64,000 bases of DNA, taken from positions 61,080-125,079 of the IMG/VR virus record IMGVR_UViG_3300033145_000274. The stretch is one strand, 5' to 3'. A program made the position numbers and the translations under genes. Below, piece after piece: positions 2,490 through 60,703 of the stretch. The notes beneath the pieces are model-generated. The model had not been told where the DNA came from, did no database searches, and saw nothing but the letters and a program-made list of their open reading frames with translations. Source of the stretch: a virus. The stretch's first letter is position 1. Each line of letters begins with the position of its first letter.

Positions 2490-3620
2490 ATGAGTAAAAT
2501 AGTTGTTAAAGTCTGTAAAATAGACGAAATCATACCGCATGGCAATGCCGATGCGTTAGAAGTAGCTTGTGTTGGTGCATGGACAACCTGTGTCAAGAAG
2601 GATGTATTTGCCGCAGGTGACCTGGTGGTCTTTATTCCTCCCGATGCTATTCTTCCAAAAGAATTACATGAGCATTTGGGTATCACTCAGTATTGTGGTG
2701 AAATGCCGCAGAGTAGTGGAGAAGCTGAGCAAGGAAAGAGACGTGTGCGAGCTACACGTTTGAGGGGAGTGCGGTCGTTCGGTACTCTAATGACCATAGC
2801 TGATGTAGTAGAATACTTCAGGTCGGTACATGGTCATCCTCCTTCTCATTGTTATCCTTTTATGGAGGGCAACGAACTTTCTGTGTTGCTTGGCATCACC
2901 AAATATGAACCACCAGAGAAGATTCGCCAGGGTGACCAAATGACCCCACATGCCTTGTTTCATAAGTACACAGACATAGAACGATATCAAAACTTTCCTT
3001 CCTTGCTTAAAGAAGGTGAGGAAGTGGTTATTTTGGAGAAAATCCATGGAACCAATTGTCGTGTTGGTCTGGTGATGACCGATGTGGGTCTTACGTTCAT
3101 GGCTGGTTCACACAATACACGTCGCAAAGCAGTGGATACCATAGGTCACAATTCGCTTTATTGGAAACCACTTGACGAATCTATTGCAGACATGAAGGGC
3201 TTATTGGAATATGAGCAGCATGAGCGAGAAGCCGTGTCTATCATAGTGTTCTGTGAAATTTATGGTCCTGGCATTCAGGATATGCAATACGCCGGATATT
3301 TAGCATACCGAGTATTTGATATTGCTGTCAATGGTGAATATCTAAACTGGGATGATGTAGAGCGCATCTGTAAGGCTCATGCCGTTCCAACAGTGCCGGT
3401 ACTCTATCAAGGTCCATTTAGTGAAGAGGTATTGATGGAACATACTGATGGCAATACTCAAGTATGCGAAGCCGTTACTGGTAAGTTCAAGGGTCGCGAA
3501 GGGTGTGTCGTAAAGCCCATTGTTGAACGACAGGATTTTGACATACCAAGTGGTCGAGTTATTCTCAAGAGTGTGGGTGCGGATTATCTCAACAGGAAAG
3601 GTGGTACGGATAACGCATGA
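2490..3620 (+). CDS. ATP-dependent RNA ligase (DRB0094/Rnl2-like) with N-terminal OB-type domain
   Basis: EKIHGTN adenylation motif, CEIYG, VFDI, REGCVVKP, ILKSV; N-terminal HGNADALE OB-like region. Confidence 0.85.
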   Translation: MSKIVVKVCKIDEIIPHGNADALEVACVGAWTTCVKKDVFAAGDLVVFIPPDAILPKELHEHLGITQYCGEMPQSSGEAEQGKRRVRATRLRGVRSFGTLMTIADVVEYFRSVHGHPPSHCYPFMEGNELSVLLGITKYEPPEKIRQGDQMTPHALFHKYTDIERYQNFPSLLKEGEEVVILEKIHGTNCRVGLVMTDVGLTFMAGSHNTRRKAVDTIGHNSLYWKPLDESIADMKGLLEYEQHEREAVSIIVFCEIYGPGIQDMQYAGYLAYRVFDIAVNGEYLNWDDVERICKAHAVPTVPVLYQGPFSEEVLMEHTDGNTQVCEAVTGKFKGREGCVVKPIVERQDFDIPSGRVILKSVGADYLNRKGGTDNA

Positions 3621-17937: not shown

Positions 17938-18280
17938 GGGCCTGTCATGGTTTCGACAGGATATTGGAGTTTGTGATTGCGTGTCGTGGTTTACCGAATG
18001 GCCACGAAAAAAATCGGTAAAAAACCTTTAATTGGCAATAACATTGTCGAAGGCTTCGCAGTAGCCGGGTTCGCCTCTCAAAAGGCCCCCAACGCTGCCC
18101 CTCAGTTCAGCTTTGTTTAACGACAAGTTATCTGAGGCGACGGCTTAATCTTGTGCCATAACAAGAGCATATCATATTTAGAGACAGTTTTGTTTGTTGT
18201 ACAGCTTAACAACAAACTACACACGTAGACGTTGCTTAATAAGGTATCGCTGGAAATGGGTTCGACTCCCATCAGGTCCA
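17938..18280 (+). ncRNA. ssrA: tmRNA
   Basis: GGGCCTG/CAGGTCC-A acceptor with G3.U70, 5' GGTTTCGACAGG, T arm GGGTTCGACTCCC, internal tag ORF 18034-18120. Confidence 0.9.
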
Positions 18281-18315
18281 CTTATTTCATACTATTGAAA
18301 ATTCACATGTGAAAC

Positions 18316-20259: not shown

Positions 20260-20287
20260 TTGACAATAAATTTTCTTGGTGTATAAT
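20260..20287 (+). promoter_or_regulatory. sigma70-like promoter of RNA cluster
   Basis: TTGACA-16nt-TATAAT. Confidence 0.8.
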
Positions 20288-20293
20288 ACAAGT

Positions 20294-20356
20294 GAGGCGA
20301 ATGAATTAGCGCTTACATGTCCAAAAATGAACGGCGCTGAAAATCCTTGTCGCTTC
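20294..20356 (+). ncRNA. candidate minimal Y RNA 2
   Basis: GAGGCGAATGAATTAGCGCTTACATGTCC...GGCGCTGAAAATCCTTGTCGCTTC; begins 6-7 nt after -10 box. Confidence 0.65.
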
Positions 20357-20362
20357 TTGTGT

Positions 20363-20448
20363 TCCGTGGGGGCAACTGTTGGAAGTTGCGGGCGTCTGTT
20401 AAACGTCTATGGGTAACACCTACGCTGGTTCGATTCCAGCCTGCGGAG
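20363..20448 (+). tRNA. tRNA-Asn(GTT), long variable arm
   Basis: TCCGTGG/CTGCGGA-G, anticodon arm GGCGT-CTGTTAA-ACGTC, 16-nt variable region. Confidence 0.85.
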
Positions 20449-20489
20449 CTTATGTGATTTACTTAGGATTCTTGTGAAGGAAAAGTGCT

Positions 20490-20831
20490 TTGAGCAAAAA
20501 CAAAGAACGTCAGTTTAAGTTGCTTCGTCTTGTTAGCGGCAGTACGGTATTAGCCAATGTGTTATATCAACGTGAAAACACAGGACAAGAATACGAGTTG
20601 ACGAAGCCGATGGAAGTAATTGTCATGCCTGACCGGTCGGGCCAAACGATGATTACTCTCATGGATTTTATTCCCGCAAGCCGACAAGAGGTTATTCGTA
20701 TTGGTAAGGCCCACGTAATGTGTTCCGCCGTACCCGATGATAAAGTAGCGGCTTTGTATCAACAGGCCACTAATCCGAGTGCCGTGATAGCACCGCCTGA
20801 GCAAAAGCTGGCGTTGCCGCCAGGAGTATAA
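20490..20831 (+). CDS. hypothetical phage protein
   Basis: TTG start with gaagga RBS; LLRLVSGSTVLA. Confidence 0.6.
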   Translation: MSKNKERQFKLLRLVSGSTVLANVLYQRENTGQEYELTKPMEVIVMPDRSGQTMITLMDFIPASRQEVIRIGKAHVMCSAVPDDKVAALYQQATNPSAVIAPPEQKLALPPGV

Positions 20832-20834
20832 TAT

Positions 20835-20908
20835 AGGGCTGAGGGCTTGATGGTAAGCCGCCTGGTTTGGGACCAGGAGTTGTGTGGGTTCGACTCCCAC
20901 CTGCCCTA
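20835..20908 (+). tRNA. tRNA-Pro(TGG)
   Basis: CCTGG-TTTGGGA-CCAGG; GTGGG-TTCGACT-CCCAC. Confidence 0.9.
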
Positions 20909-20919
20909 CTGACAATCAT

Positions 20920-21006
20920 AGCGCAGGGTTCTCTGTTGGTAATGGGTGCCCAGACTTTCAATCTGGGGGTCGTAAGGCCACGCGGGTTCAATTCCCGTCT
21001 GCGTTA
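20920..21006 (+). tRNA. tRNA-Glu(TTC), long variable arm
   Basis: CCAGA-CTTTCAA-TCTGG; variable hairpin GGTC-GTAA-GGCC. Confidence 0.85.
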
Positions 21007-21014
21007 CTTATAAT

Positions 21015-21089
21015 GGGGGATGGTTCACTGTTGGGAGTGTTGCTTGGTTTGCAACCAAGTTGTCGTGGGTTCGATTCCCATATCCTCCA
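21015..21089 (+). tRNA. tRNA-Ala(TGC)
   Basis: G3.U70; CTTGG-TTTGCAA-CCAAG. Confidence 0.92.
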
Positions 21090-21091
21090 CT

Positions 21092-21178
21092 GCGTACGAG
21101 TCGGATATTAGTTGGCCGAGCCTGACTGTGAATCAGGAGGCTATTAAAGCCATGCGGGTGCAATTCCCGTCGTTCGCC
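21092..21178 (+). tRNA. tRNA-His(GTG), long variable arm
   Basis: CCTGA-CTGTGAA-TCAGG; variable hairpin GGCT-ATTAA-AGCC; C73; genomic -1 base is T. Confidence 0.85.
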
Positions 21179-21336
21179 CTTGAGGTTCTGTGTCATAGGA
21201 GACCCGCGCACCCTCTTATTACCAGTCGATACAACATGGCGTGCGGAATAGCCGGATACGTTCGTATGGTCTTGTGTTGTTTAGGTTAAAGCGACTTATA
21301 ATCGTGGCGAGCCTCAAATTTATAAGGATTTATTTT

Positions 21337-21600
21337 ATGAGTCTTTTTGGACATTGGGAATGCCCCAACTGTGGAACGACTTGGACTGGTAGTATAGGTT
21401 GGCAACCCCCAACAGATGAAGAAGAGTTAAAGAACATGCTACACAATATGTGTGGTTGTAGTGGACCAATCGAGGGTGCTCAAACACCTGTTATGAGTGC
21501 ATCTGTGATGAATGTTAAGCTTTCAGACAAGCGATTGGCAATGAATCTTGATATTGATAAACCACGCGAAGGTGACGCCGAAAGCGCCGGGCGCAACTAA
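21337..21600 (+). CDS. hypothetical zinc-ribbon protein
   Basis: HWECPNCG..CGC; 3' end overlaps tRNA-Trp. Confidence 0.5.
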   Translation: MSLFGHWECPNCGTTWTGSIGWQPPTDEEELKNMLHNMCGCSGPIEGAQTPVMSASVMNVKLSDKRLAMNLDIDKPREGDAESAGRN

Positions 21601-21643
21601 CTCTCCAAAGGTTAGATAAGGGGTTCGACTCCCTCGTTGCCTG
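21570..21643 (+). tRNA. tRNA-Trp(CCA), atypical D arm
   Basis: CTAACT-CTCCAAA-GGTTAG; T loop TTCGACT; AGGTGAC/GTTGCCT-G. Confidence 0.7.
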
Positions 21644-21752
21644 CTAGAAGGTAGGACATCATGTTGCAAATATCTCCAGAAGAAAAAGAACTAAAACTAG
21701 AGCAATAAGTAGTCGTTTCAGCCAGGACTCAGAAAACTTTTTGGAGACACGC

Positions 21753-26421: not shown

Positions 26422-26494
26422 CCTGCCTAGCCCATCCGGTGGTGGGGGCTGGCTGTCAACCAGTTTGTGGCGAGTTCGACTCTCGTAGGTGGGG
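26422..26494 (+). tRNA. tRNA-Asp(GTC)
   Basis: GCTGG-CTGTCAA-CCAGT; G73. Confidence 0.88.
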
Positions 26495-26554
26495 CTAAAC
26501 GGTCGGGCGACACGCTATTAAGCATCGCCCAATTGCTAGGGCCGTTTTTTAGAC

Positions 26555-31352: not shown

Positions 31353-31420
31353 GCCGGTGAAGGTGGTCCAAACGACTCACTCGTAATGAATTGTTCCGAG
31401 TTCGATTCTCGGCGCTGGCT
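31353..31420 (+). tRNA. tRNA-Thr(CGT), reduced D arm
   Basis: ACTCA-CTCGTAA-TGAAT; CCGAG-TTCGATT-CTCGG. Confidence 0.7.
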
Positions 31421-47838: not shown

Positions 47839-48525
47839 ATGACCATCAAAATGTATCTTGTTGGTGGTGCTGTACGAGACCAGATTCTTGGTATTCCATC
47901 CAATGACCTAGACTTTGCCGTAGAAGCCCCGTCGTATGAAGCCATGAGGGCTGAGATTGAACGACGTGGCGGAACCATCTTTTTAGAGAAGCCAGAGTAC
48001 CTAACGATTCGTGCTCGCATACCTGAACTAGGTGCTGCGGACTATGTATTGTGTCGTAAGGACGGCTCCTACATTGATGGACGACGACCAGAAGACGTGG
48101 AGCCCGGTACGTTGATAGACGACCTATCCCGTCGTGACTTCACCATGAACGCTATTGCCATGACTGAAGATGGTGAATATATTGACCCGTTTAATGGTCG
48201 TCAGTCTATGGACGGGGATATCATTCACTGTGTTGGAGACACATACAAGCGGTTTGAGGAGGACTATCTACGTATGCTGAGAGCAATTCGGTTCTCGATT
48301 ACCAAAGATATGACAATGTCCCCACAAATTTTTGCATGTCTTGAACACCCTGAAATGGTACGACACATACGACGTGTGGCGACCGAACGTGTTCGAGAGG
48401 AAATGCTCAAGTGTTTCCATTGTGATACGTTAAAGACGCTCAAAATACTAGAGTGTCTGCCCTTGGTACGTGATGCTATCTTTGACCACGGGGCTTTGTG
48501 GCTGAAGCCGACGTTGGAAAAGTAA
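47839..48525 (+). CDS. cca: class II tRNA nucleotidyltransferase (CCA-adding enzyme, short form)
   Basis: YLVGGAVRD, DLDFAV, DDLSRRDFTMNA, EDYLRMLRAIRF, ERVREE. Confidence 0.9.
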   Translation: MTIKMYLVGGAVRDQILGIPSNDLDFAVEAPSYEAMRAEIERRGGTIFLEKPEYLTIRARIPELGAADYVLCRKDGSYIDGRRPEDVEPGTLIDDLSRRDFTMNAIAMTEDGEYIDPFNGRQSMDGDIIHCVGDTYKRFEEDYLRMLRAIRFSITKDMTMSPQIFACLEHPEMVRHIRRVATERVREEMLKCFHCDTLKTLKILECLPLVRDAIFDHGALWLKPTLEK

Positions 48526-60302: not shown

Positions 60303-60641
60303 TTAAGGCAATGTTCTAACCAATGTTCTAGGCAATACTATAAGAACAATCGAACCGAGCATAAAAAAGCAACCAGAAGACGCACGATTATTTGTGTTCA
60401 GCAAAACAGGGCTTGGATACTAAATCTAAAACAAGCTTCTGGATGTACACTGTGTACAGAAAATAATCCTTGCTGCTTAGACTTTCATCATGTGCAGCCA
60501 AATATCAAGGAAAAGGATATCAGTTGGCTCGCACATAATGGATATTCCAGGGCTAGATTACAAGTTGAAATAGATAAATGCATAATTGTTTGTGCTAATT
60601 GTCATAGGAAAATTCACGCAAATAACATGCATGTCCCCTGA
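60303..60641 (+). pseudogene. 5'-truncated HNH endonuclease
   Basis: open frame GCTLC..CLDFHH..EIDKCIIVCANCHRKIH with no upstream in-frame start before a stop inside the tRNA. Confidence 0.75.
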
Positions 60642-60703
60642 GTGTGACAGACGCACGATAGCCTCCTAAGCTATAAGAATAGGTGCAATTCCTATAGGGG
60701 ATA
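60633..60703 (+). tRNA. tRNA-Arg(CCT)
   Basis: ATAGC-CTCCTAA-GCTAT; T loop TGCAATT. Confidence 0.85.

Follow-up and report, generated by a model that had tools for sequence, protein, structure and literature searches.

Three tRNA genes of a large uncultured tailed phage, specific for asparagine, glutamate and histidine, contain a long paired variable arm, the feature which distinguishes class II tRNAs. They are found in a stretch of 64,000 nt (the window), the final 64 kb of a 125,079 bp contig in the IMG/VR virus database (IMGVR_UViG_3300033145_000274). The contig is rated 69% complete, and the full genome is estimated at about 180 kb from this completeness. According to the textbook rule, long variable arms in bacteria are limited to tRNAs for leucine, serine, tyrosine and selenocysteine (Sec). 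The three phage genes are genuine tRNA genes: They are not artefacts, introns or recruited Ser, Leu or Tyr genes. Sequence comparisons make it quite probable that they are functional cognate tRNAs which follow a conserved phage design. This design appears to be widespread, conserved and recurrent in many unrelated phage tRNA arrays. The best explanation as a whole, which we hold with somewhat less assurance, is that of cognate class I bodies with a class II-style arm which would give a benefit against host defences. That the purpose of the arm may be to evade host defences directed at tRNAs is, taken alone, a tentative proposal. We have searched the full-text literature for phages in combination with long variable arms, V-arms or class II tRNAs, and we have found no description of this design, which is apparently undescribed.

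The genes are detected by ARAGORN as tRNA-Asn(gtt) at 20363–20449 (87 nt), tRNA-Glu(ttc) at 20920–21007 (88 nt) and tRNA-His(gtg) at 21092–21179 (88 nt). These coordinates take in one base (C) beyond the discriminator; the limits of nucleotides 1–73 and of the variable regions are given in Table 1. A previous reading of this DNA, made from the letters alone (the sequence-only reading), had pointed out the long arms, and the variable regions that we have read coincide exactly with those it gave. The arm of tRNA-Asn has a stem of 4–5 bp (U-A, G.U, G-C, G-C, U-A), a small loop and one unpaired base on its 3' side. In tRNA-Glu, a GGUC/GGCC stem is closed by a GUAA tetraloop, of the GNRA type; in tRNA-His, a GGCU/AGCC stem is closed by an AUUAA loop. 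Both have two unpaired 3' bases. All three genes thus have the long paired variable arm which defines class II tRNAs. Their stems also have the lengths of elongator tRNAs (7 bp in the acceptor, 5 bp in the anticodon and T arms), and the anticodon and T loops have 7 nt each. When folded by RNAfold without constraints, each of them gives a five-armed cloverleaf. The anticodon loops (CUGUUAA in Asn, CUUUCAA in Glu, CUGUGAA in His) contain U33 and a purine at position 37. Two core nucleotides, U8 and U55, are replaced: Position 8 is G in Asn and Glu and A in His, and the T loop of tRNA-His (UGCAAUU, 21159–21165) has G55 in place of U55. The Rfam model for tRNA-Sec (RF01852) is the best one for tRNA-Asn (34.7 bits) and tRNA-Glu (32.6 bits). 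These genes do not belong to tRNA-Sec: Both scores are under the gathering threshold of 47, and the anticodons are GUU and UUC, not UCA. For tRNA-His, the Rfam tRNA model (RF00005) gives 21.4 bits.

The same kind of gene is found in many other phages. We have scanned IMG/VR with gapped patterns, in which the anticodon loop and the T loop have a spacing which is only possible with a long variable region. An ARAGORN call of 81 nt or more was considered a long gene, and all the IMG/VR counts are lower bounds. The Asn scan gave at least 119 loci, with at least 110 long genes and at least 104 distinct sequences. The corresponding numbers are at least 119, at least 86 and at least 76 for Glu, and at least 120, at least 17 and at least 16 for His. 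Long arms are also present in tRNAs for Thr, Met, Ile, Lys, Cys, Gln, Pro, Trp and Asp of the same viral loci, and the trait spans at least 17 isotypes in the viral sample. When loci had been gathered for other isotypes, a long arm was found in 10 of 55 tRNA-Asn, 3 of 83 tRNA-Glu and 5 of 72 tRNA-His. Of 269 loci, 35 have at least three class I isotypes with long arms. The window belongs to the upper tail of this distribution, and it is not unique. We may define informally a group of phage long-arm class I tRNAs, with a class I anticodon, a cognate body and discriminator, a covarying arm of at least 3 bp in a variable region of at least 10 nt and a location in a phage array. The three genes belong to this group.

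Two cultured phages also contain such genes. Streptomyces phage Mandalore has an 88-nt tRNA-Asn, with G8 G9 and a long D stem, beside a canonical tRNA-Asn of 73 nt, and Erwinia phage Hena1 has an 86-nt gene (NC_048828, 56718–56803) which is annotated plainly as tRNA-Asn. Many arrays carry a long and a short copy of one isoacceptor. The closest relative of the phage that we have found, the viral locus L002 (protein identity 58–64%), has an ordinary 74-nt tRNA-Asn behind a similar promoter and leader; therefore, long and short forms share one functional slot. Arm status is fluid in both directions: Class I tRNAs may carry the arm, and phage tRNA-Leu and tRNA-Tyr often lack it. In the viral loci L003–L355, short variable loops are found in 130 distinct tRNA-Leu and 40 tRNA-Tyr calls, some of whose anticodons are perhaps miscalled. 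For example, L109 has Leu genes with the anticodons CAA, CAG, UAA and GAG and a size of 74–76 nt. There are also many tRNA-Ile(UAU) calls of 88–95 nt (in L003, L017, L038, L072 and L329, for example), which have a long arm and a CAGAUUA loop or a near variant. They look like a distinct conserved form.

The arms fold far better than shuffled sequences. The folding energies of the variable regions are −3.07 kcal/mol for Asn (−0.85 when shuffled), −4.46 for Glu (−0.76) and −2.07 for His (−0.68). GNRA loops close about 40% of the Asn and Glu arms and one third of the His arms, a frequency equal to that in the arms of phage tRNA-Ser and tRNA-Leu. A set of 18 long tRNA-Glu in register has two-sided changes at all four arm pairs, with 86% of the cells paired. 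In 17 long tRNA-Asn, three of the four arm pairs change on both sides and are never broken; each of them occurs as three or four pair types. Both sets were picked by arm length and register, so that the pairing percentages are partly built in, while the diversity of pair types is not; MAFFT alignments in which the arms or the 5' end of the window sequence were out of register have been excluded from the pair counts. The covariation score for the whole structure of the 18 tRNA-Glu is 0.809, as compared with 0.211 for shuffled alignments, and none of 500 shuffles was as high. A covariance model built from these 18 viral sequences (R1) gives 51.1 bits for the window tRNA-Glu, a value which measures shape only and is not isotype-specific, as the window tRNA-Leu(UAA) reaches 58.4 bits. 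The D stems of long-arm class I tRNAs tend towards a length of 3 bp, which is also a feature of class II tRNAs.

The unusual T loop of tRNA-His was used as the query in a metagenome scan, which gave 20 contigs; one of them, L496, contains an 89-nt ortholog. This gene and the window tRNA-His coincide in A8 G9, the D loop, the anticodon arm and the T arm. The variable arm of the ortholog, at the same place, is GUUUC/GAAAC instead of GGCU/AGCC and is fully paired; changes in the D and acceptor stems are also compensated. The family of tRNA-His with a UGCAA T loop (G55) comprises these 20 contigs (L478–L497), mostly with short variable loops, and is also found in L329. T loops of the TGC type are present in about 1% of all sampled viral tRNAs.

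Since homologous phage tRNAs have compensatory changes in the arms, and these fold far better than shuffled sequences, the hairpins are beyond chance and appear to be kept by selection. This bears on the idea that the genes are decaying pseudogenes, or artefacts of tRNA-finding programs, which would agree with Rfam scores below threshold, with the U.U mismatch in the acceptor stem of tRNA-His and with its loss of the G-1 present in orthologs. Nevertheless, compensatory changes between the window and its relatives have preserved all helices, including the extra arm. L329 also has the U4.U69 mismatch and the UGCAA T loop of tRNA-His, and neither the strong promoter nor the tight layout of the operon is disrupted. 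We consider decay or artefact extremely improbable, as covariation seems to have largely refuted it already. An intron or other spliced segment was also considered, as the sequence-only reading had foreseen. This is ruled out: The segments are 15–16 nt hairpins of class II type, with 4–5 bp, GNRA-capped and conserved by covariation.

The arm is not a general compensation for the lack of U8. This nucleotide is missing in all five tRNAs of the operon which contains the three genes together with tRNA-Pro and tRNA-Ala (Table 1): Positions 8–9 are GG or AG. All of them except tRNA-Pro share a (U)GUUGG D loop, and the D stem of tRNA-Asn has up to 6 bp. This style without U8 and with a (U)GUUGG D loop is also observed in tRNAs of L008, L010, L355, L284, L351 and phage Mandalore. 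It is a lineage trait which is separate from the long arm, as 90 of 96 long-arm tRNA-Asn in the wider sample keep U8.

In order to compare viruses and cells, the Asn pattern was also run on 185,579 prokaryotic genomes, one per species. Among the matches listed, 110 of 119 were truly long tRNA-Asn in viruses (92%), versus 25 of 120 in prokaryotes (21%). Eleven of these 25 calls are in arrays of at least 10 tRNAs within 8 kb, and about five are archaeal genes which contain introns, the only intron-like cases in the prokaryotic scan. We estimate that the density of long-arm tRNA-Asn is tens of times higher in viral DNA, a rough value which uses assumed database sizes and allows for chance matches. 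The textbook rule, on which the sequence-only reading relied, thus holds in cells as far as Asn is concerned, and the objection that such arms might be common in host tRNAs finds no support for Asn in the prokaryotic scan.

The bodies of the three tRNAs agree with their anticodons. When the anticodon, D arm and variable region are left out, the 30 nearest cores among about 2,750 distinct viral tRNAs include 20 of the same isotype for Asn, 20 for Glu and 14 for His. The best match of the window tRNA-Glu is the tRNA-Glu of locus L307, with 91% identity. The discriminators (G in Asn, A in Glu, C in His) are the cognate ones. Long-arm tRNAs across the sample also have the expected discriminator in most cases: A in 63 of 71 Glu, C in 13 of 15 His, U in 8 of 10 Cys, A in 23 of 23 Ile, G in 7 of 7 Trp and G in 93 of 107 Asn. 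They follow the short-arm tRNAs of their own isotype, and there is no convergence on the Ser type. The identity of bacterial tRNA-Asn is defined by G34 U35 U36 and G73, with U1-A72 for the amidotransferase route (PMC9976931), and the window tRNA-Asn has GUU, G73 and U1-A72. In addition to these discriminators, nearest neighbours and U1-A72, the phage genes share with canonical class I genes such as E. coli asnT or the phage T5 tRNA-Asn a most likely 7/5 acceptor/T branch and canonical anticodon loops; the A73 of tRNA-Glu is usual in phages. They differ from these canonical genes in having a variable region of 15–16 nt with a hairpin of 4–5 bp, instead of 4–5 nt, in the lack of U8 and in their extended or odd D arms, to which we must add the lack of G-1 and the G55 of tRNA-His and the scores below the Rfam threshold. 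The most likely situation, judging from these features, is that the three tRNAs are cognately charged by the host Asn, Glu and His systems.

A different outcome would be a switch of identity or a dual identity: Seryl-tRNA synthetase (SerRS) would charge the tRNA-Asn with G73, or LeuRS or TyrRS the tRNA-Glu with A73, which would place Ser at Asn codons and Leu at Glu codons. The sequence-only reading had suggested such cross-charging from the fact that SerRS reads the long arm plus G73. The G73 of tRNA-Asn is indeed present, but it carries little weight because G73 and the anticodon are the ordinary identity set of bacterial tRNA-Asn. Another aspect is the geometry of the arm. The most frequent number of unpaired bases 3' of the arm in viral loci L003–L355 is one in Ser, two in Leu and three in Tyr. 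Most long-arm Asn, His, Thr, Lys and Cys tRNAs have three or four, unlike Ser and Leu, and this could keep SerRS and LeuRS away; long-arm Glu tRNAs mostly have one or two. Bacterial tRNA-Ser identity requires a large variable region, G73, C72, G2-C71, R4-Y69, C11-G24 and G30-C40 (PMC9976931). The window tRNA-Asn has the arm, G73, G4-C69, C11-G24 and G30-C40, while A72 and C2-G71 replace C72 and G2-C71. A better fit of Asn and Glu to the tRNA-Sec model than to the tRNA model also agrees with a switch, and there are precedents: Nematode nev-tRNAs are misacylated with Leu (PMC3333845, PMC4300185), and allo-tRNAs with non-Ser anticodons have a predicted Ser identity (PMC5389517). On the other hand, the bodies are cognate and not similar to Ser or Leu, and long-arm tRNAs have retained the discriminators of their isotypes (U73 in Cys and C73 in His, for example), which is only sensible under cognate charging. 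Besides, the three genes are the only Asn, Glu and His tRNAs on the 125-kb contig, and L002 uses a normal tRNA-Asn in the same slot. Mischarging with Ser or Leu seems unlikely and is disfavoured overall, in view of the cognate discriminators and bodies; it is less improbable for the window tRNA-Asn and tRNA-Glu, whose arms have the number of unpaired 3' bases of tRNA-Ser (one) and tRNA-Leu (two), respectively.

Cognate charging has its own difficulties. None of the three genes reaches the Rfam gathering threshold for tRNA (29 bits). Two of them coincide with class II tRNAs in the number of unpaired 3' bases: one, together with G73, in Asn (the Ser mode) and two, together with A73, in Glu (the Leu mode). 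Class II synthetases such as AsnRS and HisRS, to judge from AspRS and SerRS complexes, approach the tRNA with the variable loop facing the enzyme; their tolerance of the arm is not self-evident for this reason. In E. coli, the identity of tRNA-Glu depends on U34 U35, A37, pairs 1-72 and 2-71 and an augmented D helix which lacks nucleotide 47. The window tRNA-Glu has the anticodon and A37. Its A1-U72 and G2.U71 pairs are unlike those of E. coli and like those of phage long-arm tRNA-Glu (G1.U72 in 15 of 18), and the long arm stands where the E. coli rule needs a short variable loop. In the case of His, G-1 paired with C73 is the main determinant for bacterial HisRS, along with the GUG anticodon (PMC9976931). 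The window gene has C73 and GUG. Its lack of a genomic G-1, already noticed in the sequence-only reading, is clear (Table 1), it also has G55 and U4.U69, and no Thg1 is found on the contig. These features of tRNA-His weigh against cognate function. The orthologs in L496, L329 and L347 encode G-1. Among 94 distinct viral tRNA-His (L003–L355), T-1/C73 is found in 26, G-1/C73 in 53 and G-1/A73 in 8.

Some of these oddities would also be expected if the genes had no role in translation, as decoys or sponges for tRNA nucleases or toxins, or as clients or partners of the phage Ro60/Y-RNA system which is encoded nearby. The low tRNA model scores, the tRNA-His with G55 and no G-1 and the absence of U8 in five tRNAs could be understood in this way, and the inhibition of AriB, the nuclease of the PARIS defence system, by overexpressed viral tRNAs has been raised as a possibility (10.1101/2025.02.04.636281). 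Nevertheless, the anticodon loops are canonical, and hundreds of sequences retain the identity elements which the cognate synthetases need. The acceptor and T arms are complete, with the covariation of functional tRNAs, and no further tRNA for Asn, Glu or His is present on the contig. A non-translational role is improbable.

Cognate long-arm tRNAs may be compared with several known types. They resemble bacterial tRNA-Ser, tRNA-Leu and tRNA-Tyr in the length of the arm stem, its GNRA or UUCG-type loops, its place between the anticodon and T stems and the tendency to 3-bp D stems, and the window Asn and Glu genes also have the unpaired 3' count of Ser and Leu. They differ in the anticodons (GUU, UUC and GUG), in their nearest cores, which are Asn, Glu and His rather than Ser, Leu or Tyr, and, for most long-arm Asn, His, Thr and Lys tRNAs, in the three or four unpaired 3' bases. 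Allo-tRNAs and (8/4) tRNA-Ser and tRNA-His (Mukai et al. 2017, PMC5389517) share a long V-arm, a long D stem, a 6-bp anticodon stem, non-Ser anticodons on a shape similar to tRNA-Sec and an occurrence in phage tRNA clusters. They have 8/4 or 9/3 acceptor/T branches and are thought to carry Ser, while the window genes keep cognate features. The phage (8/4) tRNA-His also lacks G-1, and has A73 or U73 instead of the C73 of the window. An eighth pair, 8-65, is possible in each of the three window genes. In six tRNA-Asn of the window subfamily, however, 49-65 is always paired, while 8-65 is impossible in L040 (C8) and L355 (A8). An 8/4 structure is thus disfavoured, and a 7/5 branch is most likely for this subfamily on the evidence of these pairs. 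The nematode nev-tRNAs (PMC3333845, PMC4300185) also combine a long arm with class I anticodons and are conserved within their lineage. As far as they are described in a later paper, the same combination is found in the eukaryotic nov-tRNAs (Hamashima et al. 2016, as cited in PMC5389517). Unlike the phage tRNAs, which come from viruses of bacteria, include many isotypes and agree with their own isotype in body and discriminator, the nev-tRNAs occur in eukaryotes and accept Leu in vitro.

We can now consider what the arm might do. The Asn, Glu and His genes would be transcribed in one operon with tRNA-Pro and tRNA-Ala, and the transcripts would depend for their maturation on the RNase P of the host and on a CCA-type nucleotidyltransferase of the phage. 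Each tRNA would be a normal class I body of its own isotype, with the class II-style arm built in. The arm should be cheap in translation because the ribosome, EF-Tu and the processing enzymes already handle class II tRNAs. Its place is next to the 3' side of the anticodon stem, the target of defence nucleases such as AriB (which cuts at 40/41), and the arm would alter how anticodon-arm nucleases and tRNA-modifying toxins see the phage copy, so that translation might go on as host tRNAs are destroyed. A more specific version, which we regard as rather doubtful, is that the arm might be a steric shield against anticodon-arm nucleases or toxins (AriB-, Schlafen-, PrrC/RloC-, colicin- or MenT/AbiEii-like) and still be accepted by the synthetases, EF-Tu and the ribosome.

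The distribution of long arms among anticodons is not even. Long-arm tRNA-Thr is found only with UGU, in 21 of 90 genes, versus none of 52 with GGU or CGU (p = 4e-5), and long-arm tRNA-Gln only with UUG, in 13 of 91, versus none of 34 with CUG. A defence role, such as the block to anticodon nucleases or RNases suggested in the sequence-only reading, fits this anticodon-specific spread. The AriB nuclease cuts the E. coli tRNAs Lys(UUU), Thr(UGU) and Asn(GUU) between positions 40 and 41 and reads U36-A-A-U-C (bioRxiv 10.1101/2025.02.04.636281), and this site is only a few nucleotides from the place where the arm emerges. The AAUC sequence at 37–40 is kept in 11 of 21 long-arm Thr(UGU), as compared with 15 of 69 short-arm ones (p = 0.012); the trend is weaker in Lys and does not appear in Asn. 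The phage tRNAs known to escape anticodon stem-loop nucleases, such as those of T5 against AriB (PMC11464382, 10.1101/2025.02.04.636281, PMC10264068), are copies of the attacked isoacceptors Asn(GUU), Thr(UGU) and Lys(UUU), and the window tRNA-Asn resembles them in its A39, which breaks the U36-A-A-U-C motif. They differ in that their escape depends on point changes in the anticodon stem-loop (PMC10264068, PMC11464382).

Several facts speak against a defence role of the arm. The anticodon enrichment comes from a sample which was chosen for long-arm tRNAs and whose sequences are interrelated. The change U39>A in tRNA-Lys(UUU) abolishes AriB cleavage (10.1101/2025.02.04.636281), and the window tRNA-Asn already has A39. 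The Asn, Thr and Lys tRNAs of phage T5 defeat PARIS (PMC11464382, 10.1101/2025.02.04.636281), and the T5 tRNA-Asn is an ordinary short-arm class I gene of 78 nt, including CCA. For this reason, the rescue experiments with PARIS say nothing about the arm, and we have dropped T5 as a precedent. The paper on AriB specificity (10.1101/2025.02.04.636281) does not contain the word "variable", and none of the papers on such escape that we searched mentions the variable arm.

The arm might also have no defence role at all. It would be a tolerated or mildly stabilising insertion in ordinary cognate tRNAs, spread by turnover and recombination of phage tRNA arrays, and its stem would be kept only because an unpaired insert at the hinge of the tRNA would harm folding. 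This would explain why the arms look just as in ordinary class II tRNAs and share their loop types with those of phage tRNA-Ser and tRNA-Leu, why the trait runs both ways, with many short-armed viral tRNA-Leu and tRNA-Tyr, and why it appears in at least 17 isotypes; L002, moreover, manages with a short-arm Asn in the same slot. Engineered V-arm hairpins in an allo-tRNA chassis are reported to stay active in E. coli (PMC7590224). A neutral insertion does not account easily for the strong anticodon bias within one amino acid (UGU versus GGU and CGU in Thr, UUG versus CUG in Gln), for a density which is far higher in viral than in cellular DNA, for the frequent presence of long and short copies of one isoacceptor in one array or for the co-adapted D stems. 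Neither can the arm be a general repair of a damaged core, as most long-arm tRNAs keep U8. We consider such a neutral arm possible, although rather unlikely.

The coordinates of the genes and of the features around them are shown in Table 1. The sequence-only reading placed the three genes in one operon, which is plausible because the promoter upstream of tRNA-Asn, a 12/12 match to the consensus, is the only promoter-like site revealed by a consensus scan of the + strand between 20100 and 21750. The order of genes is tRNA-Asn(GUU), a 113-aa open reading frame (ORF), tRNA-Pro(UGG), tRNA-Glu(UUC), tRNA-Ala(UGC) and tRNA-His(GUG), with only two bases (C, T) between the discriminator of tRNA-Ala and G1 of tRNA-His. 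The counterpart of the leader in L002 is found at 3455–3521, though the tRNA behind it is a different, short-arm Asn. The L002 copy of the ORF stands after tRNA-Pro, while the window copy stands before it. CCA is not encoded by any tRNA gene of the window; almost all are followed by C, and then usually by T. The 228-aa nucleotidyltransferase in Table 1 is likely to be the enzyme which completes CCA in the phage tRNAs, as its domain suggests.

Table 1. Features of the tRNA operon and related features of the window.
Feature	Position	Strand	Sequence	Remarks
Promoter of the tRNA operon	20260–20287	+	TTGACA-16-TATAAT	sigma-70 type, 12/12 consensus match
Transcribed leader ahead of tRNA-Asn	20294–20362	+	GGCGAATG...GCTTACAT...GTCGCTTC	about 70 nt, kept in relative L002
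tRNA-Asn(GUU), 1–73	20363–20448	+		U1-A72, G8 G9, extended D stem, G73
tRNA-Asn variable region	20408–20423	+	TATGGGTAACACCTAC	16 nt, between 5-bp anticodon stem and 5-bp T stem
113-aa ORF	20490–20831	+		within tRNA operon, phrog_527, kept in L002 (4363–4707)
tRNA-Pro(UGG)	20835–20908	+		ordinary short variable loop, A8 G9 (ARAGORN)
tRNA-Glu(UUC), 1–73	20920–21006	+		A1-U72, G2.U71, G8 G9, A73
tRNA-Glu variable region	20967–20981	+	GGGTCGTAAGGCCAC	15 nt (GGTC-GTAA-GGCC)
tRNA-Ala(UGC)	21015–21089	+		short variable loop, G8 G9 (ARAGORN)
Position −1 of tRNA-His	21091	+	T	G-1 not genomically encoded
tRNA-His(GUG), 1–73	21092–21178	+		U4.U69 mismatch, A8 G9, C73
tRNA-His variable region	21138–21153	+	AGGCTATTAAAGCCAT	16 nt (GGCT-ATTAA-AGCC)
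228-aa nucleotidyltransferase	47839–48525	+		poly(A) polymerase/CCA-adding head domain

A megablast search of 5 kb around the operon against cultured phages gave no matches, an exact 20-mer from the Asn arm gave none in IMG/VR, and the 113-aa ORF, as sole query, gave no related viral loci. The trypsin-like protein encoded nearby matched L002 only.

The whole window contains 30 tRNA genes and one transfer-messenger RNA (tmRNA) according to ARAGORN, every one on the + strand. The tmRNA (17938–18283, 113 bits) has an unusual tag peptide, which ends in QFSFV. A 74-nt gene at 26422–26495, called tRNA-Leu(caa) by ARAGORN, is better read as tRNA-Asp(GUC): Its loop is CUGUCAA, with C32, U33, A37, A38 and a canonical position 34, and it has G73; Rfam gives no match at gathering. 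At 21571–21659, overlapping with the end of an ORF, there is a tRNA-like element whose T arm, GGGGUUCGACUCCC, is perfect. This element is not called by ARAGORN and has weak matches to the models for tRNA-Sec and the Tymovirus tRNA-like structure, with about 20 bits each. Two more tRNAs, at 31353–31420 and 60633–60703, are above the Rfam threshold (30.6 and 44.8 bits) and are not called by ARAGORN.

The division between class I and class II tRNAs is treated as fixed in bacteria, and the identity rules of synthetases are built on it. In our survey of phage tRNA arrays, about one fifth of the tRNA-Asn have long arms, with smaller shares for Glu, His, Thr(UGU), Met, Ile, Lys, Cys and Gln. The survey adds the Glu and His long-arm families, a rule of arm geometry and a specificity for certain anticodons. 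If these tRNAs are cognate, AsnRS, HisRS, GluRS and other synthetases must tolerate a large appendage which SerRS and LeuRS must reject, and the phage genes would be a natural test set for identity and anti-determinant rules. It would also follow that tRNA-finding programs and Rfam thresholds miss or mislabel such genes. The cultured carriers, phages Hena1 and Mandalore, make the function of the arm directly testable, and engineered orthogonal tRNAs could use such arms as portable handles. Immune systems which cut tRNAs (PARIS, retron-Septu, Schlafen, PrrC) are being discovered at a rapid pace, and the arm may represent a counter-defence of a new type. If it is in fact a steric shield, the gain of arms in class I tRNAs and their loss in phage tRNA-Leu and tRNA-Tyr would be two sides of a single arms race over the shape of tRNA.

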